Positions 2,782-61,000 of a stretch of 64,000 bases of DNA are shown one piece after another (positions within the stretch are counted from its first letter, which is position 1; each line of letters starts with the position of its first letter). Made by a program: the position numbers and the translations under genes. Location: the NCBI GenBank assembly GCA_964632215.1, contig CAZWBG010000001.1, forward strand, positions 431,863 to 495,862, given 5' to 3'. The notes beneath the pieces were generated by a model that did not search any database, was not told the origin of the DNA, and worked only from the letters and a program-made list of their open reading frames with translations. The stretch comes from an uncultured Candidatus Saccharibacteria bacterium (GTDB lineage Bacteria; Patescibacteriota; Saccharimonadia; Saccharimonadales; UBA7683).

Positions 2782-3447
2782 CTAGGTGACTGTCGTGTTA
2801 CGTAGTTCCCGCTGGCGAGCGAAGACCTGGAGTCGCGGGACTGCCAATTCGAGTGTTTGCTGAGCATTACCACTGGCATCTATGGATGCATGGGCTCTTC
2901 GCATACCCTGCCAAGCAACTAATTCGTAGCCAACACTCACCTCTGATCTTGCTTGTTCCCACGACTGAAGCCGTAAGGCTGCCGCATCTACAGACACGCT
3001 CGATTCCAATGCATCAGGGCCAACCACCTCATGATGTTTTTCGTCAAAGGTGTCAGCTATGTATCGTTCTTTACAGACAGCTTCATCAGCCTCCATATAA
3101 AGCACAGATCCGCCTAGCTGCTGAGTAAAGTATTCTACGTCTCGCAAATGTCGCAGTGCATCAACAATAATAATGCCGCCATTCAGGCGGCGTAGCTGAT
3201 CTAGAACCTGCTGATCTTCACCTACTTCACGTAAACCAGCATGGTATTCTTGCATTCCAGTTAACGATGGCGGACCGTTGTAACCGTACCAAGACAGTAG
3301 TTGACGCATCGGTACAGCGTGTATTTCGGAATCTGTTATATCAATGTCATCAAGGAGTAAGCTGTCGAGACCTCGTGCCAGAGAAGTTTTTCCGACTCCA
3401 GGTAAGCCCATAAGTGCTACCAGAGTGGATTCAGTATATTCTGCCAC
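2782..3447 (-). CDS. P-loop NTPase / kinase-like protein
   Basis: Walker A motif GLPGVGKTS lies near the N-terminus. The GTG start has TATACT exactly 6 nt upstream, the leaderless-type arrangement. Confidence 0.55.
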   Translation of the reverse strand: MAEYTESTLVALMGLPGVGKTSLARGLDSLLLDDIDITDSEIHAVPMRQLLSWYGYNGPPSLTGMQEYHAGLREVGEDQQVLDQLRRLNGGIIIVDALRHLRDVEYFTQQLGGSVLYMEADEAVCKERYIADTFDEKHHEVVGPDALESSVSVDAAALRLQSWEQARSEVSVGYELVAWQGMRRAHASIDASGNAQQTLELAVPRLQVFARQRELRNTTVT

Positions 3448-18971: not shown

Positions 18972-19403
18972 TTAAGACACTGCATTTGAAGAATCACGAA
19001 TGTCATGTTCGGATGTAAAGCGTAAATAGTAGCCAGCAGGGTCAACAATCCTGAAATCCCATAGTCCCCAAGGTTGCTCAATGAGTGGCTCAACAATCTC
19101 TGCCACTCCCTTTACGCTGTCATAGTAGCCACCTATATCTTCAACCACAACAACAATCTCTACACCATAACCACGTGGTGTATCTGATGGGAAACGACTA
19201 AAATATGTCTGGTCATACACATACTGGTTCCCACCCCAAAAACATAAAGTATTTCCTTCAAGTTCTATAACTAAATAACCTTTGGTCTTTTCTGGCTTAC
19301 GTTCCCAGAGTACTTTAAATCCAAGATTAAGATAGTACTCTTTAATAGGTTCAAAGTTATCTACGTGCAGTTCAAGTTGGAGCTTATTCGAAGATTTATC
19401 CAT
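18972..19403 (-). CDS. VOC / glyoxalase-bleomycin-resistance fold protein
   Basis: Size and paired beta-alpha-beta-beta-beta style blocks (HVDNFEPIKEYY..LGF; VVVEDIGGYY; FRIVDPAGYYLRF). TATTAT lies 6 nt upstream of the ATG. Confidence 0.6.
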   Translation of the reverse strand: MDKSSNKLQLELHVDNFEPIKEYYLNLGFKVLWERKPEKTKGYLVIELEGNTLCFWGGNQYVYDQTYFSRFPSDTPRGYGVEIVVVVEDIGGYYDSVKGVAEIVEPLIEQPWGLWDFRIVDPAGYYLRFTSEHDIRDSSNAVS

Positions 19404-19607
19404 ACTATCATAATAGCAAAAAGCCTCTATGTAGAGACTTTTATGTATAACGAAAATGTGACCCCCTCCCCACCCGATTTTTAACTCTATAGTGGCGGAG
19501 ATAGTTCGTTGGAACGATACAATTCGTAATGTAGGTGTTCAGCTATCCCCTATGGAGACAATATGATGTGTACTCGTCATATTCCTTAATAGAGTAGAAC
19601 CTTCATA

Positions 19608-20156
19608 CTATTTGCCAAGAATCCTTTTTCGGTATTCATCAGCCATCATAAACGAAGTTGTGTCGCTAACATGGTCGACAAATAACACGCCGTTAATATG
19701 GTCGGTTTCATGTTGAACAACTTGTGCAACAAAACCACCGATTACCTCTTCCCTACTTTTTGCATGTTCATCGAGCCAGGTAACTTTTACTTGTTCATAA
19801 CGAGGGAGTTGAGCGAAAAGAATGTCATCTTCCGTCCCACAACTCACACAACCTTCCCACATATCTATGAGTTCACCGAACGTTTCAACAATCTCAGGAT
19901 TAATAAGAACCGTGTAGAATGGTTCAAGCTCAGGGCGATTAGGTGTTGGCTTAATGCCTATAACGCTCAGGGCTATGCTTTCACCGACTTGAGGCGCAGC
20001 AATGCCAACGCCATACTTCTTCTCGATAAGCGTGTAGCGCATATTTTTAATGAGTGATTGAGTATCACTTGATAGGATTTCATCTTCGCTTAAGCGTCGA
20101 GCTGTTTCACGAAGTACGGGATTACCGAACCGAATAATGGGAAGGATTTCAGTCAT
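19608..20156 (-). CDS. def: Peptide deformylase
   Basis: GVGIAAPQVG, EGCVSC, and QHETDHINGVLF. TGCTATGAT lies 6 nt upstream of the ATG. Confidence 0.9.
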   Translation of the reverse strand: MTEILPIIRFGNPVLRETARRLSEDEILSSDTQSLIKNMRYTLIEKKYGVGIAAPQVGESIALSVIGIKPTPNRPELEPFYTVLINPEIVETFGELIDMWEGCVSCGTEDDILFAQLPRYEQVKVTWLDEHAKSREEVIGGFVAQVVQHETDHINGVLFVDHVSDTTSFMMADEYRKRILGK

Positions 20157-33260: not shown

Positions 33261-33635
33261 ATGACTAAGATAACTATTGTTGAGGATGATGCCACTATTT
33301 GCAATATGTATGCACTGAAGTTTCGGCATGCTGAATTTATTGTGAGTACAGCTAAAGATGGCTACGAGGGCTTGAAGGTCATCAAGAAAGAAGCGCCAGA
33401 CATGATTTTGCTTGATCTTCGTATGCCCCGTATGGGCGGTGATGAAATGCTCAGGGAGCTACGCGGTAGTGAATGGGGTCAAGAGATACCCGTTATAATC
33501 CTTACTAATATCAGTAAAGATGAGGCACCCCGTACTTTGTGGCACCTAGGTATTAGCGATTTCATTGTGAAGTCGCACAGTACTCCCCAGAAAGTACTAG
33601 ATTGTGTACAGAAAGTACTTGCGAGTAACGTATAA
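33261..33635 (+). CDS. Stand-alone response-regulator receiver domain protein
   Basis: IVEDD, phospho-acceptor context ILLDLRMP, ILTN and FIVKS. There is no output domain. Confidence 0.85.
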   Translation: MTKITIVEDDATICNMYALKFRHAEFIVSTAKDGYEGLKVIKKEAPDMILLDLRMPRMGGDEMLRELRGSEWGQEIPVIILTNISKDEAPRTLWHLGISDFIVKSHSTPQKVLDCVQKVLASNV

Positions 33636-33694
33636 ATACGGTCTTATTTTGTTTTGTGGTTGCGCTTAAGGGGTTTTTTGCTTAAAGTTAGTAT

Positions 33695-34069
33695 ATGTCG
33701 GCCATAAAAATTGCAATTGTTGAAGACGATCTAGCTATTTCCCAAATGTACCGCCTCAAATTTGAGTCTGAGGGGTATGAAGTTCAGACTGCTGAAAACG
33801 GCAAGCTTGGGCTTGAGCTCGCTGAAGTATTCAAGCCAGATATTATTTTACTTGATCTTATGATGCCAGAAATGACTGGTGACGAAATGCTCATAGAGCT
33901 CCGGAAGAAAACCTGGGGCAAGAAAACTACGGTCATTATTTTGACAAACCTTGGTGAAGAAGAATCACCAAAAGTTTTACGAGGCCTGGGTGTTCACTCC
34001 TTTATCGTCAAAGCCGAGATGACACCACGACAAGTTGCCGAACGTGTTAAACAAGCTCTAGCAGCCTAG
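33695..34069 (+). CDS. Stand-alone response-regulator receiver domain protein (paralog)
   Basis: IVEDD, ILLDLMMP, ILTN and FIVKA. Length and layout match the upstream paralog. Confidence 0.85.
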   Translation: MSAIKIAIVEDDLAISQMYRLKFESEGYEVQTAENGKLGLELAEVFKPDIILLDLMMPEMTGDEMLIELRKKTWGKKTTVIILTNLGEEESPKVLRGLGVHSFIVKAEMTPRQVAERVKQALAA

Positions 34070-34884
34070 CCAGCGATGCCAGCGGCACGCTTGGCGGAAC
34101 GAATAACATTTTCAAATAGTGCGCAGACCGTAAGTGGGCCAACGCCACCTTTCTTTGGTGTAATCTTCAGATCATCTCGTTCATAGACATCATCAGCTAA
34201 GTCGCCCACTGCTCTGCCAGATTCCATGGCTACACCAGCATCTACCACCACACAACCCTTAGGAATCATCGCGCTCGTTAGTAGGCCTGGTACGCCCGTG
34301 GCAGTGATAATAACATCTGCCGTGGCAGTTTCCTTTGCAATATCGTCAGAAGAATCACAAACCACTACATTTACTCCTGAATTTTTAAGGAGAATCTCCA
34401 GTGGCTGCCCAACCAATTTGCCATGTCCAATAATTACAACTTTGCGGCCGTTTTTTATATCTATATTATAGCCCGCCAGAAGCCAGAGAATTGCCGTAGC
34501 TGTGGCTGGGTCGAGTATTGCATGAGCACCAAGGGCATCAATGTCTTTTTCTGGCGCAACTAAATCGCAAATCTTTTGTGTTTCGGAAACATCAGCCAAT
34601 GGCAACTGCACAATAATTCCATGTACAGAATCATCTTGGTTCAGTACAGTAATTAACTCGGCTGCTTCACTTTGTGCAATACGATGAATTTCTACCTCAA
34701 TAAGAATATCGCTACCGTAGCGCTCTTTCAGGCGCATGTATATTTCAATAATTGGCTGTTCAACGGTCACGATAATAGCTAATTTTGGCACTACACCATA
34801 AGCTTGTCGTAAACCACGGACAGCTTTAATTTGGCGTTCTTTTACGAAGTCGGCAAGGTCAGCGCCGTTTAAGAGTCTCATCAC
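34066..34884 (-). CDS. folD: Bifunctional methylene-THF dehydrogenase / methenyl-THF cyclohydrolase FolD
   Basis: HGIIVQLPL, KDIDAL, VVIIGHGKLVGQPL, and GGVGPLTV. Confidence 0.88.
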   Translation of the reverse strand: MMRLLNGADLADFVKERQIKAVRGLRQAYGVVPKLAIIVTVEQPIIEIYMRLKERYGSDILIEVEIHRIAQSEAAELITVLNQDDSVHGIIVQLPLADVSETQKICDLVAPEKDIDALGAHAILDPATATAILWLLAGYNIDIKNGRKVVIIGHGKLVGQPLEILLKNSGVNVVVCDSSDDIAKETATADVIITATGVPGLLTSAMIPKGCVVVDAGVAMESGRAVGDLADDVYERDDLKITPKKGGVGPLTVCALFENVIRSAKRAAGIAG

Positions 34885-37983: not shown

Positions 37984-38508
37984 ATGAACTACATCTATCA
38001 CGGCGTACCCGACCAAATGATTGGCACGGAACTGAAGCCGCTCACACAGATATACGAGACAAACTCTGAGCTGCACAAGAAGTACTCAGAAAAATATAAA
38101 GGACGTGAAGAGCTTTTGGAGCGTAGGATACCTCTGCTCAACTGCCTATGGAATGCTGTTGTTCATCTCTCGCCGCTCCACCCTCGCAAAGTATTTGAAC
38201 TTCAAAAAGAGCTGGGACTAATCTTAGATTTGCCCTCATGTGAGTATTTCGAGATTGATCTCACAACACTTGATCCTGGAAAAACGGTTGTTTATTTCAA
38301 AACCGGGCCTGGCGAAGAAAATACCGAAACCAAATGGTTGAAAGATATTGATTTTGCTACTCTTCGAGAGATCCCGCCAGCTACAATAGCTTATTACAAA
38401 TCACTCGTCGGAACTGGTGAACAACCATTTAACTATCAGTTCATTCCCCACATACTGTACAAAGGTAGCCTTGATATATCATCAGCACACAAAGTGCGTC
38501 TAGGGTAG
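37984..38508 (+). CDS. Hypothetical protein
   Basis: 174-aa ORF with TGCTACTAT -10 exactly 6 nt upstream of the ATG. No motif recognised. Confidence 0.5.
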   Translation: MNYIYHGVPDQMIGTELKPLTQIYETNSELHKKYSEKYKGREELLERRIPLLNCLWNAVVHLSPLHPRKVFELQKELGLILDLPSCEYFEIDLTTLDPGKTVVYFKTGPGEENTETKWLKDIDFATLREIPPATIAYYKSLVGTGEQPFNYQFIPHILYKGSLDISSAHKVRLG

Positions 38509-38553: not shown

Positions 38554-39123
38554 CTAGTGTATTTTTTCGTTAGCTTCAAGCATTGCTAGTATTTTGTCTT
38601 GTCGTCTTTTGCGAGTTTCATCGGTTTTAGCTGTCTGCAAACGCCAAGCAATCGCATACCTATTAGTTTTATTAAGTGTTTCAAAGAATTCTTTTGCTTT
38701 AGGATTTTTATGCAACTCTGCTAAGAAGTAATCTGGAACTACCATGTCACTTGGCTTGTCGTATGCTGCACTCCATCGGCCATCATCCTTTGCACGCTCT
38801 ACTTCTGTAATACCTGTAGGCATCATTAAGTCCGCATCAGTAAGCCGTTGAATGTGTTCAATATTACGTTTTGACCACAAGCTATTCTTGCGCCTTGGTG
38901 TAAACTTTTGTAAATATGAGAGTTCATCACTTTTCTTCCTCTGGCCGTCAATCCATCCAAAGCATAATGCACTATCCAAAGCCTCGGCATGGGTAATCGA
39001 AGCAAGCCCAGACGATTTTTTGTACAGCCGTAACCATACTCCATCGGTTTTGGAGTGATGTTCGGCGAGCCACTGTCGCCACTCCTGAATATTCTTAAAA
39101 GCAATAGTCTCGTAATCTTTCAT
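38554..39123 (-). CDS. YdeI/OmpD-associated (OmdA) family protein
   Basis: F....EWR.WL..H......VWL..YKK.SG..S......AL..ALCFGWIDG, plus a C-terminal RLQTAKTDETRKRR. This is cassette 1. Confidence 0.65.
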   Translation of the reverse strand: MKDYETIAFKNIQEWRQWLAEHHSKTDGVWLRLYKKSSGLASITHAEALDSALCFGWIDGQRKKSDELSYLQKFTPRRKNSLWSKRNIEHIQRLTDADLMMPTGITEVERAKDDGRWSAAYDKPSDMVVPDYFLAELHKNPKAKEFFETLNKTNRYAIAWRLQTAKTDETRKRRQDKILAMLEANEKIH

Positions 39124-39200
39124 TATCCAATCATAACAAAAAAGACGCCCTAATAGGGAGTCTCTCCTAGTACTTATATCTGGAGGACTATAGTAGGCGC
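39124..39200 (-). repeat. Cassette junction unit R1
   Basis: Minus strand reads GCCTACTATAGTCCTCCA, then a spacer, then hairpin GAC.CCCT/AGGG.GTC with T6. TGTTATGAT follows, then 6 nt, then the ATG at 39123. Confidence 0.6.
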
Positions 39201-39210
39201 TATCGCAACT

Positions 39211-39531
39211 TTATTGAGAGCCCCAACTCATCAGGGCGCTAACAAACCACAAAACCAATAAACCCACGATTCCTGTTATTACACTAACCGTCAAAGCTGG
39301 GACGAAAATTACCTTCTTTCCCCTGTGTGCGAGAGCAAAGCCAAACAGCCCAGATGCTACTACGCACCCCAAGACAAACAGTAACGCTACCGTTTGAGGA
39401 GAGCCGTAAAAAGGCTTTGTTGAAGAGTAAATTTTACTCCAAATAACCGTCAAGCTAACGGTTGCTAAGTAAACTAACGTGCCGCAGTACGCAAGGACCT
39501 CTAGTTGTTTACTGGTGACTATTTTTTTCAT
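39211..39531 (-). CDS. Small membrane protein (3 predicted TM helices)
   Basis: 106-aa hydrophobic ORF. This is cassette 2. Confidence 0.5.
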   Translation of the reverse strand: MKKIVTSKQLEVLAYCGTLVYLATVSLTVIWSKIYSSTKPFYGSPQTVALLFVLGCVVASGLFGFALAHRGKKVIFVPALTVSVITGIVGLLVLWFVSALMSWGSQ

Positions 39532-39621
39532 TAGTATTAACTATAGCAAAAAAGACGCCTCAAATTAAGAAGTCTTTCATGGTGCCTATGCCTGGAAGGA
39601 CATAGTAGAGTTTATCAGGAT
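39532..39621 (-). repeat. Cassette junction unit R2
   Basis: Minus strand reads TCCTGATAAACTCTACTATGTCCTTCCA, then GGCATAGGCACCATG. AAAGAC..GTCTTTTTT follows, then TGCTATAGT, then 8 nt, then the ATG at 39531. Confidence 0.6.
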
Positions 39622-39637
39622 AAAATTGTGATGAGTG

Positions 39638-40087
39638 CTACAAATATCCGAGGTTTTGCAGAGTTGTCTTAATTGGAGGGGTTAGGGTCAGTTTTGTAAG
39701 TCTCGATATAGGATGCCAGGCTGCTTCGACAATATCGTCATCGCAACTTATGGCTATTTCGGTTGCTGGCTTGTTAGCATACACAGTAAAATCATAGAAC
39801 GTCATAGCCACCATTACTCTTTCATTTGTATCTCGTAAAACCTTTTCGCTTTCACCAGTTAGTACGGTATTTAGCAATTTTACTTTGTAGGGCGTGATAT
39901 CAATTCCAACTTCTTCGATCGTTTCTCGAATGGCAGCCTGAAGCTTTGTTTCACCTTCTTCAATACCACCACCTGGAATTATCCACGAATCTTTGTAGAC
40001 TCCACCTTTGCGGCTTTTTCCAAGCAGGAGTTGATTATCGTTAGAGAAAATAAAGGTACCAACTATATCTCGATGAATTGTTCGCAT
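39638..40087 (-). CDS. Nudix hydrolase
   Basis: Nudix box GGGIEEGETKLQAAIRETIEEVGIDI. This is cassette 3. Confidence 0.8.
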   Translation of the reverse strand: MRTIHRDIVGTFIFSNDNQLLLGKSRKGGVYKDSWIIPGGGIEEGETKLQAAIRETIEEVGIDITPYKVKLLNTVLTGESEKVLRDTNERVMVAMTFYDFTVYANKPATEIAISCDDDIVEAAWHPISRLTKLTLTPPIKTTLQNLGYL

Positions 40088-40177
40088 TAGCTTATTATAC
40101 CAAACAAAAAAGTCTCTCTGATGAGAAGTCTTTCATAGTGCTTATGTTTGGAGGGACACGGTGGAACTTATCAGGAC
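40088..40177 (-). repeat. Cassette junction unit R3
   Basis: Minus strand reads GTCCTGATAAGTTCCACCGTGTCCCTCCA, then AACATAAGCACTATG. A weak hairpin with T6 follows, then TGGTATAAT, then 6 nt, then the ATG at 40087. Confidence 0.65.
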
Positions 40178-40194
40178 AAAGCTAATCGCAATGC

Positions 40195-40842
40195 CTAGGC
40201 CCGCAGTTTTATATCAAGTTGTTCCAGAAGAAATACATGAAACTCAGTCATGAATGGATTCCAGAGCATATGGGGGCGTTTGTGTTTTACGATGGTTTCA
40301 ATTATTTTATCTGGCTCAATGCCTACATATTCTTTATATCGCCACTTAGTAATTTCAGGTGGCATTAAGTAGTCAATAATATCTGGGTTGATTTTATCAA
40401 TTGATTTTGCGAATTTTGCCGATTTACTAGACTTTGTTTCGGCATCATCGTAAATATCATGGTATATAGGATTAAGGAGCCCGAGAGCCGCTTCTCGCTC
40501 TGTTATATGAGAGTCGACTTTTTTAGTAAATACCATTTCATCACCTGTGATTAGCTCTCCGATGTCATGAATCGCCATCATTATTAACGACTGACCCAAG
40601 TCAACATCCGAATCCTTAACGTAAGGATATAATGCAGTACCAAGCATAGGTAATGAGCCGACATGCTCTATGAGTGTTTCCCGCACTATGTCATCGTCAG
40701 GATGGTAATTGTATCCTTTGAGCTGTTCTTGTGCGACTTTCAGTAGGTACGGCTGTGTAGTGGCTCGTCGTTCAAGCGAGTAGTGCTCGAACAAGAATTC
40801 AATCTGATCTAGTATCTCTTGCATGCTTGGTACTTTGGGCAT
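40195..40842 (-). CDS. HD-domain phosphohydrolase (YfbR-like 5'-nucleotidase type)
   Basis: E.LIEHV......G...... followed by AIHDIGELITGDE. This is cassette 4. Confidence 0.65.
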   Translation of the reverse strand: MPKVPSMQEILDQIEFLFEHYSLERRATTQPYLLKVAQEQLKGYNYHPDDDIVRETLIEHVGSLPMLGTALYPYVKDSDVDLGQSLIMMAIHDIGELITGDEMVFTKKVDSHITEREAALGLLNPIYHDIYDDAETKSSKSAKFAKSIDKINPDIIDYLMPPEITKWRYKEYVGIEPDKIIETIVKHKRPHMLWNPFMTEFHVFLLEQLDIKLRA

Positions 40843-40932
40843 GCATTAATCATACCAAACAAAAAGACCTCTCGGATGAGAAGTCTTTCATGGTGCTTAT
40901 GTTTGGAGGGACACAGTGGAACCTATCAGGAC
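40843..40932 (-). repeat. Cassette junction unit R4
   Basis: Minus strand reads GTCCTGATAGGTTCCACTGTGTCCCTCCA, then AACATAAGCACCATG. AAAGACTTCTC-atcc-GAGAGGTCTTT with a T-run follows, then TGGTATGAT, then 6 nt, then the ATG at 40842. Confidence 0.65.
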
Positions 40933-40950
40933 TAGTATTATGCGATCTTG

Positions 40951-41376
40951 TTACAATTCAGAACGTATTTTCATCCATAATTTGCCGAGTTGATTTTCGC
41001 CGCCTCCATCCTTACCTCGACCCCAAAATTCATCAACAGGCGAATCCTCGGCAATTTCTTCGTCACCGCTTTTAACCAATGCATCACGGACTTCCTGGTG
41101 TTGATCAAGCTTTGCCCGAAGGATGGATTCCATTACTGACAGCTTTTTTGCACTCCAGTCAGAATCTTTTGCTGACTCATACTTCTGGTTACTAACTTCT
41201 TTGGCAAGCAACGGACTCTTTGCTGCTATTATTTCTCGTTTTCCGTCAGGATCAGTGCATTTAGCAGCTTGAAACGCGTGCTCACTCGTTGGATACAGAA
41301 CTCCATTAATTTCTACCGCATTAGCCGAGAAATTATTCAGAACATCGTACCACTGGCCGTAGAAATAAATAGGCAT
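40951..41376 (-). CDS. NADAR (YbiA/DUF1768) domain protein
   Basis: IYFYGQ...LNNFSA..VEINGVLYPTSEHAFQAAK plus a C-terminal ENQLGKLWMKIR. This is cassette 5. Confidence 0.75.
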   Translation of the reverse strand: MPIYFYGQWYDVLNNFSANAVEINGVLYPTSEHAFQAAKCTDPDGKREIIAAKSPLLAKEVSNQKYESAKDSDWSAKKLSVMESILRAKLDQHQEVRDALVKSGDEEIAEDSPVDEFWGRGKDGGGENQLGKLWMKIRSEL

Positions 41377-41451
41377 AAATTTATTATAACAAAAAAGACG
41401 CCTCTGATGAGAAGTCTTTCATGGTGCTTATGCTTTGGAGGTCCATCGTGC
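41377..41451 (-). repeat. Cassette junction unit R5
   Basis: Minus strand reads GCACGATGGACCTCCA, then AAGCATAAGCACCATG. AAAGAC..GTCTTTTTT follows, then TGTTATAAT, then 6 nt, then the ATG at 41376. Confidence 0.6.
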
Positions 41452-42086
41452 TAGCTATCGCAACTTTGCGTTAAAAGAAGTTCTACTCGTTGCTGATGTG
41501 GAACTTCAACCTCCTCATGATGCGCATTCACCGCATCAGTTGACAGGCCTATTGCGGCCGAAACCACAGCAGGCATTCTCAAGTCGTAAGGCGAAAGATA
41601 TCTAATTATATTACCCATATAGTTTGGCGTAAGCATGACATCTAAGACGCTTCCGCAAGTGTCAGCAGTTTCAATATCTTGTTCGGCCAGAGCTGCCTGT
41701 CCGTGACTAGCAATATCCATCACGTATCGAGCCGTTTGTGGGTGCATGACAGCGATAGCATTAAAGTGTGTCACCTCATCATGACGACGCCAGTCATTAA
41801 ATATAAACTCTTCATATGGTGCTACCAACTGGTCTTTAATAGCATCATAATATTGTGAAACAAGGTATTCACCCTTAGTAAGACTTCCGAGATATGCAGC
41901 CGTTGGTGTCCGTCCATAGGTGTCTATAAAAACTTCTTCACTTTCTACGATACGAATTGCTGGCTCATCTCCCATACCGAGTTTTTGGCGAAGCATAGCA
42001 GCCTCGGCATTATAGGCATCAAGGTCTTCAAGTTGTTCATATACAGGGTATCGTTTTAATAGTTCAAATTGCTCTACTTTTCCCAT
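41451..42086 (-). CDS. Hypothetical protein
   Basis: 211-aa ORF with GGAG SD 9 nt upstream. No motif recognised. This is cassette 6. Confidence 0.5.
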   Translation of the reverse strand: MGKVEQFELLKRYPVYEQLEDLDAYNAEAAMLRQKLGMGDEPAIRIVESEEVFIDTYGRTPTAAYLGSLTKGEYLVSQYYDAIKDQLVAPYEEFIFNDWRRHDEVTHFNAIAVMHPQTARYVMDIASHGQAALAEQDIETADTCGSVLDVMLTPNYMGNIIRYLSPYDLRMPAVVSAAIGLSTDAVNAHHEEVEVPHQQRVELLLTQSCDS

Positions 42087-42143
42087 TGCCTAACTCCGTA
42101 CTTAGTAATTACAGCTAGTTATATCCTTATTGAGGTGAGTATG

Positions 42144-42219
42144 CAAGCACAAGCAAAAAGGCTCCTCTAGCCAAGAAGTCTTTCATAGTGCTTATGTTTG
42201 GAGGGTCAGGAGGGACTAC
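42144..42219 (-). repeat. Cassette junction unit R6 (best tRNA-Lys 3'-end copy)
   Basis: tggagggtcaggagggact (42199-42217) matches tggagggccaggagggact of the intact tRNA at 18 of 19 positions. It is followed in the gene direction by AACATAAGCACTATGAAAGACTTC... and a T-run. Confidence 0.7.
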
Positions 42220-42273
42220 TTTGTATAATCTGCAAGCTTTCTCGAAGCGAGCTTCTGCGAGAGCTCTTGATTA
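42220..42273 (-). repeat. Family-1 hairpin insert splitting a pseudo-tRNA-Lys 3' half in the T-loop
   Basis: It is flanked by the tRNA-Lys 3'-end copy (42199-42219) and tcgaaccctcgacac (42274-42288, 15/15 identical to the tRNA). It is homologous to the insert at 48934-48991 and contains TTCTGCGA at 42253-42260. Confidence 0.6.
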
Positions 42274-42333
42274 TCGAACCCTCGACACTAAATCTGCTTC
42301 GCATATTTGTCTAGGGTTCAAGCCCTAAACATT

Positions 42334-42387
42334 CCAAAACAAAAACTCCCGAGATGGGAGTTCTTATTTTGGAGGGCTATAGTGGAC
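42334..42387 (-). repeat. Cassette junction unit R7
   Basis: Minus strand reads GTCCACTATAGCCCTCCA, then AAATAAG. The hairpin AACTCCC-atctc-GGGAGTT follows, then TTTTGTTTTGG. Confidence 0.55.
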
Positions 42388-42464
42388 ATTATCGTAACTG
42401 AAATAACAATTTGTAATTCTTGAACGTCTCTGTAGTGTTCCAAGAAACTTGTCTAAATGTAATT

Positions 42465-42488
42465 GGGCCGCGCAGAAATGCGCGGCCC
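42465..42488 (-). terminator. Perfect 10-bp GC hairpin after the G+C-rich cassette gene
   Basis: GGGCCGCGCA-gaaa-TGCGCGGCCC, located 65 nt past the stop at 42553. Confidence 0.5.
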
Positions 42489-42552
42489 GAGATCGGTTGC
42501 CCGTACGTTAATCTGCGAAGATCTCATTTACGCAGCGTATATGGATGGGCGG

Positions 42553-42879
42553 CTACCCGATGACCACCTGGCCGTTCACGGTCACCCGCTCGATGTCCCC
42601 GGTGTGGGAACCTCTGCTGCCGAAGTAGATCGGCGCTCCCAGCCGGAGGTAGCGGTCCATGACCACATTCTCCGGGAGGGGCGGGTAGTGCTTCCGGTTG
42701 GTGGTGGTGATCGACACTCCCTGGATGGTCGTGCGCTGGGCACGGGTCCCTTGGATGGTGACGAAGCACCAGGTGGAGCTACGGGTCGAGACCCGCACCA
42801 CCTGGCCCGGCAAGGCCCGACTCATGTCGTACTCCCGAGTGGGAGTGCGACGGTCCTGGTTTGCAAGCTCGGTTGCCAT
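42553..42879 (-). CDS. Hypothetical protein, strongly G+C-rich (cassette 7)
   Basis: AGGAGG lies 8 nt upstream of the ATG at 42879. Three overlapping alternative ORFs in other frames are judged spurious. No motif recognised. Confidence 0.55.
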   Translation of the reverse strand: MATELANQDRRTPTREYDMSRALPGQVVRVSTRSSTWCFVTIQGTRAQRTTIQGVSITTTNRKHYPPLPENVVMDRYLRLGAPIYFGSRGSHTGDIERVTVNGQVVIG

Positions 42880-42956
42880 AATGTTGGGCCTCCTATTGGC
42901 TCAACTAACCCCTAGCCTGTGCTAGGGTAACCTTCATCCTGTATGTAGGTTATGTT

Positions 42957-42985
42957 AATAATAAACTATGTTTCGATATTTGTCA
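42957..42985 (-). promoter_or_regulatory. Sigma70-like promoter of the G+C-rich cassette gene
   Basis: Minus strand reads TTGACA (42980-42985), a 17-nt spacer, then TATTAT (42957-42962). Confidence 0.5.
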
Positions 42986-43085
42986 ATACCTGAATTAAAT
43001 TATACGGGGATTATTTCACTAAAGAACAAACTTTTTTTAATGTAAATTTCCCAACCGACGACTATATCAAAGTTCGAGAGTATAT

Positions 43086-43134
43086 AAAAAGACCTCTAGA
43101 GAAGTCTTTTAAGAACAGTTAATGGAGGGACTCG
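43086..43134 (-). repeat. Cassette junction unit R8 (shortened tRNA-Lys 3' end + hairpin)
   Basis: tggagggactcg equals the tRNA-Lys 3' end with an internal deletion between its two GAGGG repeats. In the gene direction, the 9-bp hairpin AAAGACTTC/GAGGTCTTT and TTTTTATATAC follow. Confidence 0.55.
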
Positions 43135-43223
43135 GTCACATTCTGCGACCCCGAAACTTTCATACTTATGGCATAGCCACAAATCTGAAAGGTTTCCTTG
43201 CGAAATACCACTGGCATTTCTCA
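43135..43223 (-). repeat. Family-2 hairpin insert next to tRNA-Lys
   Basis: It shares two hairpins with 60752-60838: GGTCrC-attct-GCGACC, and GAAATrCC-nnn-GGCATTTCTC. TTCTGCGA lies at 43141-43148. Confidence 0.6.
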
Positions 43224-43290
43224 CCCTATCGGGTTCGAGCACGCCGCTAAATTTCCAATTTAAAAATCCACATAAAGTGGATTCATAAAT

Positions 43291-43367
43291 TGGAGGGCCA
43301 GGAGGGACTCGAACCCTCGACACCCTGCTTAAGAGGCAGGTGCTCTAACCAGCTGAGCTACTGGCCC
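43291..43367 (-). tRNA. tRNA-Lys (anticodon CUU), CCA encoded
   Basis: GGGCCAG ta GCTC agctggtta GAGC a CCTGC ctCTTaa GCAGG gtgtc GAGGG ttcgagt CCCTC CTGGCCC t CCA. Confidence 0.9.
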
Positions 43368-43483
43368 GTATTTAGTTTTGGAATGTACAAACTCAGTTTA
43401 TTTATAGCCGATACATAGGTGAGATTTAGTTAGAACACTTGGTGCTACATAACGCTACTCGACAACAAGTGTCTCGGACAGGG

Positions 43484-43505
43484 CAGCTGAGCTACTGGCC
43501 GTATC
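43484..43505 (-). repeat. Duplicate of the tRNA-Lys 5' end plus upstream flank
   Basis: cagctgagctactggcc-gtat repeats 43350-43372 (cagctgagctactggcccgtat) with one deletion, 117 nt upstream of the gene. Confidence 0.5.
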
Positions 43506-48875: not shown

Positions 48876-48918
48876 ACCATGAAAAAAGCCAGGTACAAGA
48901 TCTGGCTTTTTTCATGGT
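48876..48918. terminator. Perfect 17-bp palindrome (bidirectional hairpin) abutting the pseudo-tRNA-Arg end
   Basis: ACCATGAAAAAAGCCAG-gtacaagat-CTGGCTTTTTTCATGGT. The right arm overlaps the first 4 nt of the tRNA-Arg 3'-end copy. Confidence 0.6.
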
Positions 48919-48997
48919 ACACCCGGACGGATTACTAAGGTATAGCCTGCAAGCTTTCTCGAAGTAAACTTCTGCGAGAGCTTTTGGTTATCGAACC
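48915..48997 (-). repeat. Pseudo-tRNA-Arg 3' half split in the T-loop by a family-1 insert
   Basis: tggtacacccggacggatt is 19/19 identical to 49064-49082. A 58-nt insert follows (48934-48991, with TTCTGCGA at 48970-48977), then cgaacc. Confidence 0.65.
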
Positions 48998-49063
48998 TAC
49001 GGTTCGTATTCGCTTCGCGAATATAACCAAACAAAAAATCCACCGCAGGGTAGATTCTTTGTT

Positions 49064-49140
49064 TGGTACACCCGGACGGATTCGAACCGCCGACCCTCTG
49101 TTCCGAAGACAGATGCTCTATCCAGCTGAGCTACGGGTGC
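49064..49140 (-). tRNA. tRNA-Arg (anticodon UCG), CCA encoded
   Basis: GCACCCG ta GCTC agctggata GAGC a TCTGT ctTCGga ACAGA gggtc GGCGG ttcgaat CCGTC CGGGTGT a CCA. Confidence 0.9.
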
Positions 49141-50289: not shown

Positions 50290-50949
50290 ATGTCGTCTGA
50301 TATTATCATCTTATTAATCTATGCGATCCCCGCCCTCGTTATAAGCATCAGTCTGCACGAGATGATGCACAGCGTAGTTGGCTATTGGCTAGGAGATGAC
50401 ACCGCCAAAATGCTCGGACGCATTAGCCTGAATCCGCTCAAGCATATCGACCCAGTCACCACGATTGGCCTACCACTCATACTCGTCGTGATGGGTCTAC
50501 CACCTTTTGCGGCCGCTAAGCCTGTGCCAATTCAGATGCACCGACTAAAATTTGAAGAATTTGGTATGGCTCTAGTCGGGCTTGCTGGACCGCTAACCAA
50601 CCTCTTGCTGGCAATTATCTCAGGGTTGCTATTAAAGTTCGTCGAGCCGAGTGCACTTGATCTTCTTGCAAATGGACAGATCATTATTAACCAACCATTG
50701 GTTGGTTTCTTGAGCTACATGGTAATGATGAATGTGGGATTATTTGTCTTTAATATGATCCCCTTTCCGCCGCTTGACGGTTCCCGTGTCTTATACGCAC
50801 TCGCGCCTGAGGCTGTACAAAAAGTAATGATGCAGATCGAACAACTTGGCTTTACAGCTATCTTGATCTTCATGTTCGTAGGATTCCCACTCATTAGCCC
50901 ACTGATTCTTGGCGTACAGCGGCTCATACTGACATTTCTTGCGAGCTAA
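50290..50949 (+). CDS. M50-family (site-2 protease-like) membrane metalloprotease
   Basis: HEMMH zinc motif, LNPLKHIDP, and a late PFPPLDGS motif. TACAAT lies 6 nt upstream of the ATG. Confidence 0.8.
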   Translation: MSSDIIILLIYAIPALVISISLHEMMHSVVGYWLGDDTAKMLGRISLNPLKHIDPVTTIGLPLILVVMGLPPFAAAKPVPIQMHRLKFEEFGMALVGLAGPLTNLLLAIISGLLLKFVEPSALDLLANGQIIINQPLVGFLSYMVMMNVGLFVFNMIPFPPLDGSRVLYALAPEAVQKVMMQIEQLGFTAILIFMFVGFPLISPLILGVQRLILTFLAS

Positions 50950-55482: not shown

Positions 55483-55559
55483 GCCCCGGTAGCTCAGAGG
55501 ATTAGAGCAATGGGCTTCTATCCCACAGGCCGTAGGTTCGATTCCTACCCGGGGTACCA
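55483..55559 (+). tRNA. tRNA-Arg (anticodon UCU), CCA encoded
   Basis: GCCCCGG ta GCTC agaggatta GAGC a ATGGG ctTCTat CCCAC aggcc GTAGG ttcgatt CCTAC CCGGGGT a CCA. It lies 3 nt after tRNA-Gly. Confidence 0.88.
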
Positions 55560-60732: not shown

Positions 60733-60849
60733 AGTCGGGGTAAAAGGACTCGGTCGCATTCTGCGACCCCGAAGCTACATCTTTCAAAACAAGTTTTGAA
60801 GAGTAGATTTCCTTGAGAAATGCCACAGGCATTTCTCCCCCTTCGACCT
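60733..60849 (-). repeat. Pseudo-tRNA-Pro 3' half split in the T-loop by a family-2 insert
   Basis: gtcggggtaaaaggactcg is 18/19 identical to 60926-60944. An 87-nt insert follows (60752-60838, with TTCTGCGA at 60758-60765). Then comes ccttcgacctc, 11/11 identical to the tRNA T-stem/variable region. Confidence 0.65.
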
Positions 60850-60923
60850 CGTCGTGAATTCGAAGTTTCAGAATCATGACTCAAAACCAAGTAAAAAGCC
60901 TATCCGAAGATAGACTCTTTACT

Positions 60924-61000
60924 TGGTCGGGGTGAAAGGACTCGAACCTTCGACCTCACGGTCCCAAACCGCGCGCGCTAGCCAACTGCGCCACACCCCG
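60924..61000 (-). tRNA. tRNA-Pro (anticodon UGG), CCA encoded
   Basis: CGGGGTG tg GCGC agttggcta GCGC g CGCGG ttTGGga CCGTG aggtc GAAGG ttcgagt CCTTT CACCCCG a CCA. Confidence 0.9.

Follow-up and report, generated by a model that had tools for sequence, protein, structure and literature searches.

A 64,000-nt window of a Candidatus Saccharibacteria contig (CAZWBG010000001.1, positions 431,863 to 495,862) was analysed, and the region of interest is the row of small genes between window positions 38554 and 43367, downstream of a tRNA-Lys gene. This region is probably an integron-like cassette array that was built at the 3' end of tRNA-Lys, with the tRNA gene used as the insertion site; from its layout we infer both the mobility of the cassettes and the enzyme that moves them. 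A cassette is defined here as the segment from the base after one CCA through the next CCA. The original prediction, made by a model from the letters alone, had proposed that the genes are joined by a composite repeat. The repeat is real and within the window it occurs in the array only, but it consists of two parts with different histories, namely a cassette-borne 30-nt tag (arm plus core) and a block termed D, which is the native flank of tRNA-Lys.

The array is anchored by tRNA-Lys(CUU), which lies at 43291..43367 on the minus strand, was recognised by ARAGORN and by the Rfam tRNA model (72 bits), and offers its 3' end (...CCTGGCCCTCCA) as the primary site. Seven open reading frames (ORFs) of 106-215 aa follow between 38554 and 42879. 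All are on the minus strand, in agreement with the predicted run of seven minus-strand ORFs from the tRNA down to 38554. The junctions are linked by families of direct repeats of 55-84 nt. A related unit had been proposed at each of eight junctions, R1 to R8; R1-R6 were found to be full units, R7 and R8 are partial, and all of them are confined to 39.1-43.1 kb. Two of the stretches that had been read as junctions of a single composite repeat are in fact separate non-coding cassettes. The AACATAAGCACYATGAAAGAC block was found in five copies at up to three mismatches, all at 39572-42198, with none expected in shuffled sequence, and a profile of the block run over the whole 64 kb at E < 1 returned six copies only, those of R1-R6.

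The tag at the end of the cassettes has the consensus AGTCCTGATAAGTTCCACTGTGGCCCTCCA, in which the core TG(G/T)CCCTCCA represents the last 10 nt of tRNA-Lys. Two related types of arm were distinguished, A (GTCCTGATAAGTTCCACTGTG(G/T)CCCTCCA) and B (AGTTGCGATAGCGTCTACGGTGGCCCTCCA), and arms of both types trail unrelated genes in many genomes. A weight matrix of 30 columns, built from 30 arms, matched the window at the six array sites only (final A at 39181, 39593, 40149, 40904, 41436 and 42370). When it was run on 20 shuffles of the window, a single match was obtained in one and none in the other nineteen. Identity with tRNA-Lys was 0.85-1.0 at each of the last ten positions of the tag and had a mean of 0.29 over the nineteen positions upstream. 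Because only the last ten positions match the tRNA, the junction can be described as a short tRNA-identical core (TGGCCCTCCA) joined to an arm that is not derived from the tRNA. The proposal of a junction block derived from the tRNA 3' end thus stands for these 10 nt and falls for the 19 nt before them, which are 29% identical, the chance level. At R6 the match is longer, since 19 of 20 nt of the tRNA 3' end are reproduced (18 of 19 had been noticed before), together with a further fragment of the T-arm. Among the tRNAs of the window the CCCTCCA ending is unique to tRNA-Lys, and the 10-nt length of the core fits the crossover segment of tyrosine recombinases. Fold analysis revealed no conserved pairing in the arm, and on this ground a tRNA-like minihelix or other fold was rejected.

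In other Saccharibacteria the D block is conserved as the native sequence on the 3' side of tRNA-Lys. It is a terminator hairpin followed by an extended -10, about 75 nt in all, that begins directly after the CCA. A scan for CATARGCACYATGAAAGACTTCT over one representative genome per species matched ten Saccharibacteria contigs, as well as one contig labelled Dormiibacterota and one Prevotella contig, both without CCTCCA context. Two complete genomes were among the matches, and the pattern was present once in each, near tRNA-Lys. The earlier caveat of a possible genome-wide module is thereby refuted; the stretch at 19404-19520 that had raised it gave no match with the D profile or with the arm matrix, and what it has in common with the junctions is the generic layout of hairpin, T-run and -10. 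A metagenome scan provided 34 further loci. D starts right after the CCA of an intact tRNA-Lys in L005 and L007 (L numbers denote the related loci), one of them CUU and the other UUU, and it adjoins intact tRNA-Lys in 28 of the fetched loci, about 21 after collapsing duplicate contigs. In other loci it is found 0.2-2.8 kb downstream of the tRNA, past inserted cassettes that end in the core, and ..TGGCCCTCCA stands just before it. Two or three D blocks per array were seen in L001, L002/L030, L005, L009/L035/L041, L014, L027, L028, L034/L045, L038 and L039, and the window array, with six, is the largest among the arrays seen. By profile, its D blocks lie at 39129-39188 (R1), 39537-39602 (R2), 40083-40158 (R3), 40839-40913 (R4), 41373-41443 (R5) and 42139-42208 (R6), all on the minus strand.

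In the proposed fold of D, CCA(A) pairs with ..TTGG in the outer stem, and a 12-nt bulge (ATAAGCACYATG) precedes the extended -10. Over 41 distinct copies, 87.5% of the proposed pairs were kept, compared with 45-58% when the partner was slid. The outer helix was paired in 80% of the cells without covariation, and the near absence of covariation is explained by the conservation of the D sequence itself. The RNAalifold consensus of the 41 units contained no pairs. A leader peptide in D (ATGAAAGAC..., that is MKDF...) was rejected, as several copies have ATA in place of the ATG and the stop varies in position. Each junction also holds a direct repeat (e.g. window 40883-40933), in which GATAAG(TTC)CACTGTG of the arm resembles CATAAG-CACTATG of D about 30 nt away, on the other side of the core. 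This repeat may be a candidate protein-binding motif.

To what extent the design recurs was evaluated in 43 related loci (340 kb). Every arm match in this set was located downstream of tRNA-Lys, either CUU or UUU, and on the same strand, with 1-7 arms per array. Arrays of this kind are known from at least ten species-level genomes and about twenty metagenomic contigs. Nearly all genes that follow D are succeeded by a stop codon, a spacer of 18-37 nt, the arm and CCCTCCA. After CCCTCCA comes either another D or an unrelated hairpin and promoter, the latter in many cassettes of other genomes. The postulated discrete cassettes tied to tRNA-Lys were therefore found, CCA-bounded and with all copies in the window and the 43 loci downstream of the tRNA and on its strand.

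A comparison of the tRNA-Lys locus across relatives had been suggested together with the prediction, and it showed that both the content of the arrays and the position of individual cassettes differ between genomes. The HD cassette, sixth in the window, stands directly after tRNA-Lys in L040 (86% amino-acid identity). The alignment of the two runs through CCCTCCA, D, gene, arm and CCCTCCA and then collapses, so that homology stops at the CCA on both sides. A Peptidase_S51 cassette is the first one at tRNA-Lys(UUU) in L038 and the second one at tRNA-Lys(CUU) in L008. The first cassette of L036 is found about 3 kb into the array of L047, and L021 and L029 have their first cassette in common and share nothing past its arm. 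For pairs of cassettes in different contexts, identity was 87-93% in the arm, 84-89% in D, 52-66% at third codon positions and 17-23% in the 40 nt past the CCA. These values indicate that arm and D are under purifying selection and that the break in homology is sharp. As regards the predicted serial capture by site-specific recombination, the discrete cassettes tied to tRNA-Lys and their varying content and order were observed, and the recombination itself is what we infer from them.

A third type of junction was encountered in L010 (about position 3087), L020/L043, L024 and L046, where only CTGGCCCTCCA, an 11-nt tRNA end, precedes D. There the neighbouring gene runs in the opposite direction and has its 5' end beside the core (..GGTTTCAAAAAWGTATAYSC abutting TGGCCCTCCA); not all units are thus co-oriented or arm-bearing. 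In L001 (1545-5033) a two-cassette segment of 1.96 kb is exactly duplicated in tandem, with D blocks at its bounds, which reflects either unequal crossing-over between the repeats or an assembly artefact.

The cargo is diverse. Genes after D belong to 37 families in about 35 loci, almost all of them different. The annotated ones include Nudix, HD, NADAR, MazG, HIT, P-loop kinases, APH, LigT-like, LMWPc, HAD, Peptidase_S51, M23, Asp/Glu racemase, several DUFs and small membrane proteins. In the window array Pfam assigned OmdA/YdeI, Nudix, HD_3 and NADAR and gave no family for the 106-aa, the 211-aa and the G+C-rich 108-aa ORFs. This bears out the accessory cargo that had been read from the translations, namely YdeI-like, Nudix, HD and NADAR proteins, a tiny membrane protein and unknowns. 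Scans of the cargo for defence systems and with NCBIfam returned nothing beyond generic Nudix and NADAR similarities.

Read from the tRNA, the first cassette (43123..43290, on the minus strand like all that follow) is non-coding. It contains the current terminator of the tRNA (AATCCAC...GTGGATT) and a structured element of about 128 nt, termed type Y, and ends in ..GACCGAGTCCCTCCA. Cassette 2 (42370..43122) begins with the R8 hairpin, which is D-like without the AACATAAGCAC block. It continues with a sigma-70-type promoter (42958-42986), a Shine-Dalgarno box, the ORF 42553-42879, a G+C-rich terminator (42465-42488) and arm B with the core (42370-42399, arm score 36.2). The promoter, TTGACA-17-TATTAT, agrees with the sigma-70 type at 11 of 12 positions. 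The 108-aa ORF had been singled out as strongly G+C-rich, and its G+C content (GC) was indeed 0.65, with 0.86 at third codon positions (GC3) in the called frame, in a window of 0.45. This GC3 value marks it as a genuine gene of foreign composition. It is an orphan, with no homologue besides itself among 5.8 billion proteins, and a high-GC donor, such as an actinobacterial host or a phage of that host, can be guessed at.

The third cassette (42199..42369) is again non-coding. It opens with the palindromic terminator of R7 (42333-42373 including the CCA, z = -6.1), contains a 3' half of tRNA-Lys whose T-loop is split by a 57-nt insert (type X) and ends in GTCCCTCCTGACCCTCCA. R7 itself is made of arm, core and this plain terminator and lacks both the AACATAAGCAC block and a promoter. 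Cassette 4 (41436..42198) carries D block R6 and a leadered 211-aa ORF (41451-42086) of unassigned function, the stop codon of which falls within arm B (41436-41465). In cassette 5 (40904..41435) D block R5 is followed by TGTTATAAT, then 6 nt and the ATG of the NADAR gene (40951-41376), with arm A and core at 40904-40933. The HD-domain gene of cassette 6 (40149..40903; gene 40195-40842) stands behind D block R4 and before arm A and core at 40149-40178. Cassette 7 (39593..40148) comprises D block R3, the Nudix gene (39638-40087) and a degenerate arm A with the core CCTTCCA (39593-39622). Cassette 8 (39181..39592) comprises D block R2, the 106-aa membrane-like ORF (39211-39531) and arm B with the core CCTCCA (39181-39210). 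The terminal unit (38554..39180) consists of R1, the most degenerate D block (D score 27), and the YdeI/OmdA gene (38554-39123). The 30-column matrix found no arm in the window below 39181, and a terminal unit that lacks an arm marks the end of the array; it is either the gene that resided here originally or a cassette whose arm has been lost.

According to sequence predictions, a TGnTAnnnT box stands 6-8 nt ahead of the ATG in five of the seven ORFs, and the other two have a promoter-plus-leader arrangement. The predicted order of TGnTATrAT, 6 nt (8 in R2) and ATG was confirmed at R1-R5 and is missing from R6 and R7; R8 has only a T-arm-like tRNA end and a hairpin. At R6 the gene starts 53 nt further on, behind a GGAG box. 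Outside the array, the TGnTAnnnT box lies 6 nt before the start codon of about a dozen window genes (for example 18972-19403, 19608-20156, 34066-34884, 37984-38508 and 50290-50949), suggesting that leaderless mRNAs may be common in the host organism. Terminators with the CCA in their stem were likewise found after tRNA-Arg(TCG) and tRNA-Pro. Since the same layout is used elsewhere in the window, a terminator followed by a leaderless-type promoter appears to be the house style of this genome, and it is the D and arm sequences that are specific to the tRNA-Lys array. The cassettes do have modules of their own, as had been proposed, but the promoter style is genome-wide and many cassettes elsewhere carry a different hairpin and promoter.

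Perfect palindromic terminators, with a stem that runs from the CCA of the tRNA or core to TGG in the form CCAAnnAAAAAG...CTTTTTnnTTGG, were seen at 49027-49064 and 60886-60924. Such CCA-to-TGG terminators follow tRNA genes and many cassettes in L003, L006, L007, L029, L036 and L047 as well.

Type X and type Y elements represent a phenomenon separate from the array, and it is clear from them that recombination acts on tRNA 3' ends in this genome. Type X was found downstream of tRNA-Lys (42199-42335) and of tRNA-Arg(TCG) (48914-49027). It is composed of ..GGTTCGA, an insert of about 57 nt (TAAYCAARAGCTCTCGCAGAAG..GCTTGCAGRYTATAC..AGTA) and the last 18 nt or so of the local tRNA. Over 51 nt the two inserts share 90% identity, and they differ by a compensatory hairpin change (GAAGC/GCTTC versus GAAGT/ACTTC). 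In the Arg copy the left T-arm half corresponds to tRNA-Arg(TCT) at 55483-55559 and not to the local tRNA. Divergent relatives of type X are present in L003, L006 (two copies) and L034. Type Y (43123-43250 and 60735-60885) comes right after the terminators of tRNA-Lys and tRNA-Pro, with a fold z of -4.45. It has the conserved hairpins GAGAAATGCC.GTGG.ATTTC and GGTCGCAGAATGYGACC, and it ends in the segment from T-loop to 3' end of the cognate tRNA. Rfam searches, run with the gathering cutoffs and again with E values of up to 5, recognised tRNAs only; no E value below 2.6 was obtained for the junction units or for the non-coding cassettes.

Further features were seen around the tRNA. An exact copy of the first 17 nt of tRNA-Lys (GGCCAGTAGCTCAGCTG, 100% identity) is located 117 nt upstream of the gene at 43484..43500 on the minus strand, and it is a rearrangement scar at the tRNA. 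A 16-nt inverted repeat connects 43371-43386 with 42329-42344. In most of the related loci compared (L003, L008, L014, L018, L021, L025 and L032) folD lies directly upstream of tRNA-Lys(CUU) in divergent orientation. In the window, folD (34066-34884, in the region 33261-34884) is instead found past the array, 3.7 kb from its far end, and the place upstream of the tRNA is taken by a GDSL lipase gene; this displacement indicates a rearrangement with a breakpoint at the tRNA.

A possible course of events can be outlined. A recombinase encoded elsewhere in the genome would exchange strands within the 7-10-nt core, between the core of the tRNA (or any resident core) and that of a free cassette. The arm would be the recognition sequence on the cassette side, a functional counterpart of the integron attC. 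A cassette whose own core recombined with the tRNA core would be excised together with D, the former flank of the tRNA, and re-insertion at another tRNA-Lys would push the resident D downstream. The presence of D at each junction could be explained in this way, because excised cassettes would take it along, and with its own terminator and promoter each cassette is predicted to be expressed independently of its position. Opinion is evenly balanced on the broader proposal of a lineage-wide gene-capture platform of Saccharibacteria, in which both isoacceptors of tRNA-Lys would provide the site, the 30-nt arm would mark self-expressing single genes and an unlinked recombinase would move them. This recombinase may act during the uptake of transforming DNA.

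Several observations weigh against a mobile array. No tyrosine recombinase was detected by phmmer among ORFs of at least 110 aa in the window and the 43 loci, with E. coli XerD as the probe, which is a weak test. Pfam found no recombinase among the array neighbours either, which gave GDSL lipase, DUF4352, DUF5684 and similar families. Neighbour clustering showed that the conserved neighbours are housekeeping genes (FolD, response regulators, Mur enzymes). The predicted lack of a recombinase in the array was thus confirmed, and it extends to every array examined and its immediate surroundings. In BLAST searches of phage and plasmid collections the junction unit had no match, no free copy was found, and exact-pattern scans for D and both arm types yielded 0 matches in viral contigs. 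Among the contigs examined there was no circular junction or excision product, no empty site and no strain-level presence or absence of a cassette. Look-ups of the exact proteins retrieved contigs of one study only (SRR167979xx), with the same gene order and breaks inside the repeats, which makes this strain-level comparison uninformative. The core is not surrounded by the inverted symmetry of simple tyrosine-recombinase sites, and the sequence 3' of the CCA is not conserved between module types. Finally, the sequences are mostly metagenome-assembled and the repeats exceed common k-mers. Three short-read contigs tile the array and overlap one another only in a stretch of 28-32 nt common to R3 and R6. 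Gene order inside each tiled block was confirmed by independent contigs, and the way in which the three blocks follow one another is as given in the source assembly.

The main rival explanation requires no dedicated enzyme. After natural transformation, RecA-dependent homologous recombination could use tRNA-Lys (77 nt) and D (about 75 nt) as portable flanks. Natural competence has been reported for Saccharibacteria, and a ComEC-like ORF, judged by eye from its sequence as a DNA-uptake channel, lies near tRNA-Lys(UUU) in three loci. It counts against a site-specific process that in competent cells the tRNA gene and D could simply be flanking homology for ordinary recombination: their identity of 84-100% between genomes would suffice for rare events of homologous exchange. 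The exact duplication in L001, bounded by D blocks, and the lack of an array-linked recombinase fit this explanation too. However, many cassettes have 5' modules unrelated to D, so that the left-side sequence they share is the 7-10-nt core only, and homology nevertheless breaks exactly at the CCA. Moreover, the arm is conserved at 87-93% when synonymous sites are at 52-66%, which speaks for selection on a 30-nt sequence that a passive homology flank does not need. Homologous exchange could move D-type cassettes, and it leaves unexplained how arm and core became joined to unrelated genes. On balance it is considered unlikely.

A distinctly less probable origin is the decay of integrase-bearing, tRNA-targeting elements, phage- or tycheposon-like, in which deletion would have left cargo and attachment-site scars. 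Serial tRNA integration with inward push and partial tRNAs is documented for Prochlorococcus tycheposons (10.1101/2020.12.28.424599). R6, with its retained 19 of 20 nt of tRNA end and T-arm fragment, would suit such debris, as would the junctions of L010, L020, L024 and L046, where only an 11-nt tRNA end lies beside an oppositely oriented gene. Random decay would not be expected, though, to leave a conserved arm under purifying selection after unrelated genes in many genomes. Nor does it agree with units that are uniformly one-gene (0.4-2 kb), tightly packed and nearly all co-oriented, with promoter and terminator intact. Neither integrase nor integrase fragment was found in about 400 kb of arrays and flanks, and D and the arms are absent from the viral, phage and plasmid collections.

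Very improbable is an explanation without any mobility, either as a cis-acting expression module that spread by local tandem duplication, its genes being replaced later, or as an assembly artefact of the repeat. The terminator-then-leaderless-type-promoter layout is found genome-wide, terminators with CCA in the stem follow other tRNAs too, and the D stem is conserved in sequence beyond the needs of pairing, and this could point to a role in expression through protein binding. Contigs assembled from short reads do break at such repeats. The order within each block was confirmed by independent contigs, however, and dozens of contigs from different studies, each assembled on its own, show the same design. 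Neither D nor arm sequences are present in the remaining 59 kb of the window, and in complete genomes they occur once, beside tRNA-Lys. Identical cassettes at different array positions with breaks at the CCA require transfer or rearrangement, beyond mere duplication. Two further origins were considered for the cassette ends. Target-site duplication by a transposase with inverted terminal repeats was rejected, the ends not being inverted repeats of each other. An origin by reverse transcription or template switching at CCA ends was judged unlikely, given that the CCA-CCA bounds differ from the transcript bounds (ATG to T-run) and that the arm has no tRNA-like fold.

A cassette array at tRNA-Lys would be relevant beyond this genome. 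Saccharibacteria and other ultra-small bacteria have reduced genomes with few recognised mobile elements, and little is understood about the ways in which they gain or swap accessory genes, a question that a dedicated cassette site at tRNA-Lys would answer in concrete terms. If the proposal is true, the site would be a main route of accessory-gene flux in episymbiont genomes of about 1 Mb and a second, independently evolved solution to the problem that integrons solve. The origin of cassettes, that is, the joining of a recombination site to an arbitrary gene, could be studied in this simpler system, in which a compositionally foreign gene is already fitted with an arm. In addition, the genetic systems now emerging for such bacteria could naturally draw on the tRNA-Lys flank as a landing pad and on the terminator-promoter block of about 75 nt as an expression module.

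Among the known systems that insert at tRNA genes, tycheposons consist of an integration module of about 1 kb, a replication module of 2-4 kb and up to 10 kb or more of cargo (10.1101/2020.12.28.424599). A tyrosine or serine recombinase is encoded by the tycheposon itself, in many cases along with replication genes (10.1101/2020.12.28.424599). The array is similar to tycheposon islands in its tRNA 3' target, in the direct repeat of the tRNA end at each junction, in newcomers that push older units inward and in cargo that persists. It differs in that its units are of 0.4-2 kb with one gene and no recombinase, and in that tRNA identity extends over 7-10 nt only and is accompanied by a conserved non-tRNA arm. 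Direct repeats of a tRNA 3' segment, the attL/attR of tRNA-borne elements, are thus present as the TG(G/T)CCCTCCA core at every junction, and the integrase gene such elements contain was found in no cassette or flank. Tandem islands at the tmRNA gene ssrA of Dehalococcoides, also a streamlined genome, are reportedly multi-gene and integrase-bearing; there, repeated insertion at one small-RNA gene is said to leave a short direct 3'-end repeat between the units. Streamlined genome, serial insertion at one small-RNA gene and short 3'-end direct repeats are all features of the array as well. We know of no conserved cassette arm or per-gene promoter module described for these islands.

The pdif modules of Acinetobacter plasmids contain one or a few genes between short sites and are moved by the host Xer recombinases, which the modules do not encode. 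The array resembles them in its small modules between short sites and, by the mechanism proposed above, in a recombinase outside the module. On the plasmids, pdif sites measure 28 bp, serve XerC/XerD and alternate in orientation; the array junctions, in contrast, form direct repeats beside a tRNA gene of the chromosome. A dif-like dyad of the kind used by pdif and IMEX elements (two inverted arms of about 11 bp with a 6-8-bp spacer) was not visible on inspection of arm, core and D. Only the direct repeat ATAAG..CACTRTG on either side of the core and a weak ATAA similarity were seen by eye, and no Xer gene is present in the window. IS200/IS605-type and other HUH single-strand elements have subterminal hairpins at both ends and insert 3' of a fixed short target. 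In the array there is a hairpin 0-15 nt past the CCA at the left end and a fixed, target-like CCCTCCA, and no conserved hairpin was seen at the right end, in the arm. A TnpA-like ORF was not noticed, although no search was aimed at TnpA.

The closest likeness is to integrons, and within them to CALINs, the integrase-less clusters of attC sites, the only integron sub-class that the array fits, as it has no adjacent integrase. In both, mostly single-gene, co-oriented and tightly packed cassettes form a row at one chromosomal site, a conserved element of about 30-100 nt that looks like a recombination site stands at the cassette 3' end, the cargo comprises small accessory enzymes and unknowns, and the cassette boundary lies beside an imperfect hairpin. 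The array also differs from integrons. Neither intI nor attI was found nearby, and the anchor is a tRNA 3' end. The attC sites are imperfect palindromes of 57-141 nt with the boxes R'' RYYYAAC and R' GTTRRRY and crossover in R'. A comparison of consensus and anatomy showed that the array junction, ..TCCAAAC ... GTTTGGT.., mismatches both boxes; in most other loci it reads CCAAGC/GTTTGA. Homology breaks at the 5' foot of the hairpin, just past the CCA, and not at the 3' foot. Integron cassettes are promoterless and depend on a common promoter, unlike the array cassettes with their own promoter and terminator, and the host of the array belongs to a Saccharibacteria lineage with a genome of about 1 Mb. 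The functional analogy to an integron array that had been drawn at the outset therefore holds for an integrase-less, array-like arrangement, but not for intI and attI, the attC consensus or promoterless cassettes. The literature searched contained no description of such arrays in Saccharibacteria or Patescibacteria, which is consistent with the earlier statement that no system with this layout was known and, being an absence there, is not proof of novelty. Taken together, the array looks like a kind of site-specific cassette accretion at a tRNA gene that has not been described before.

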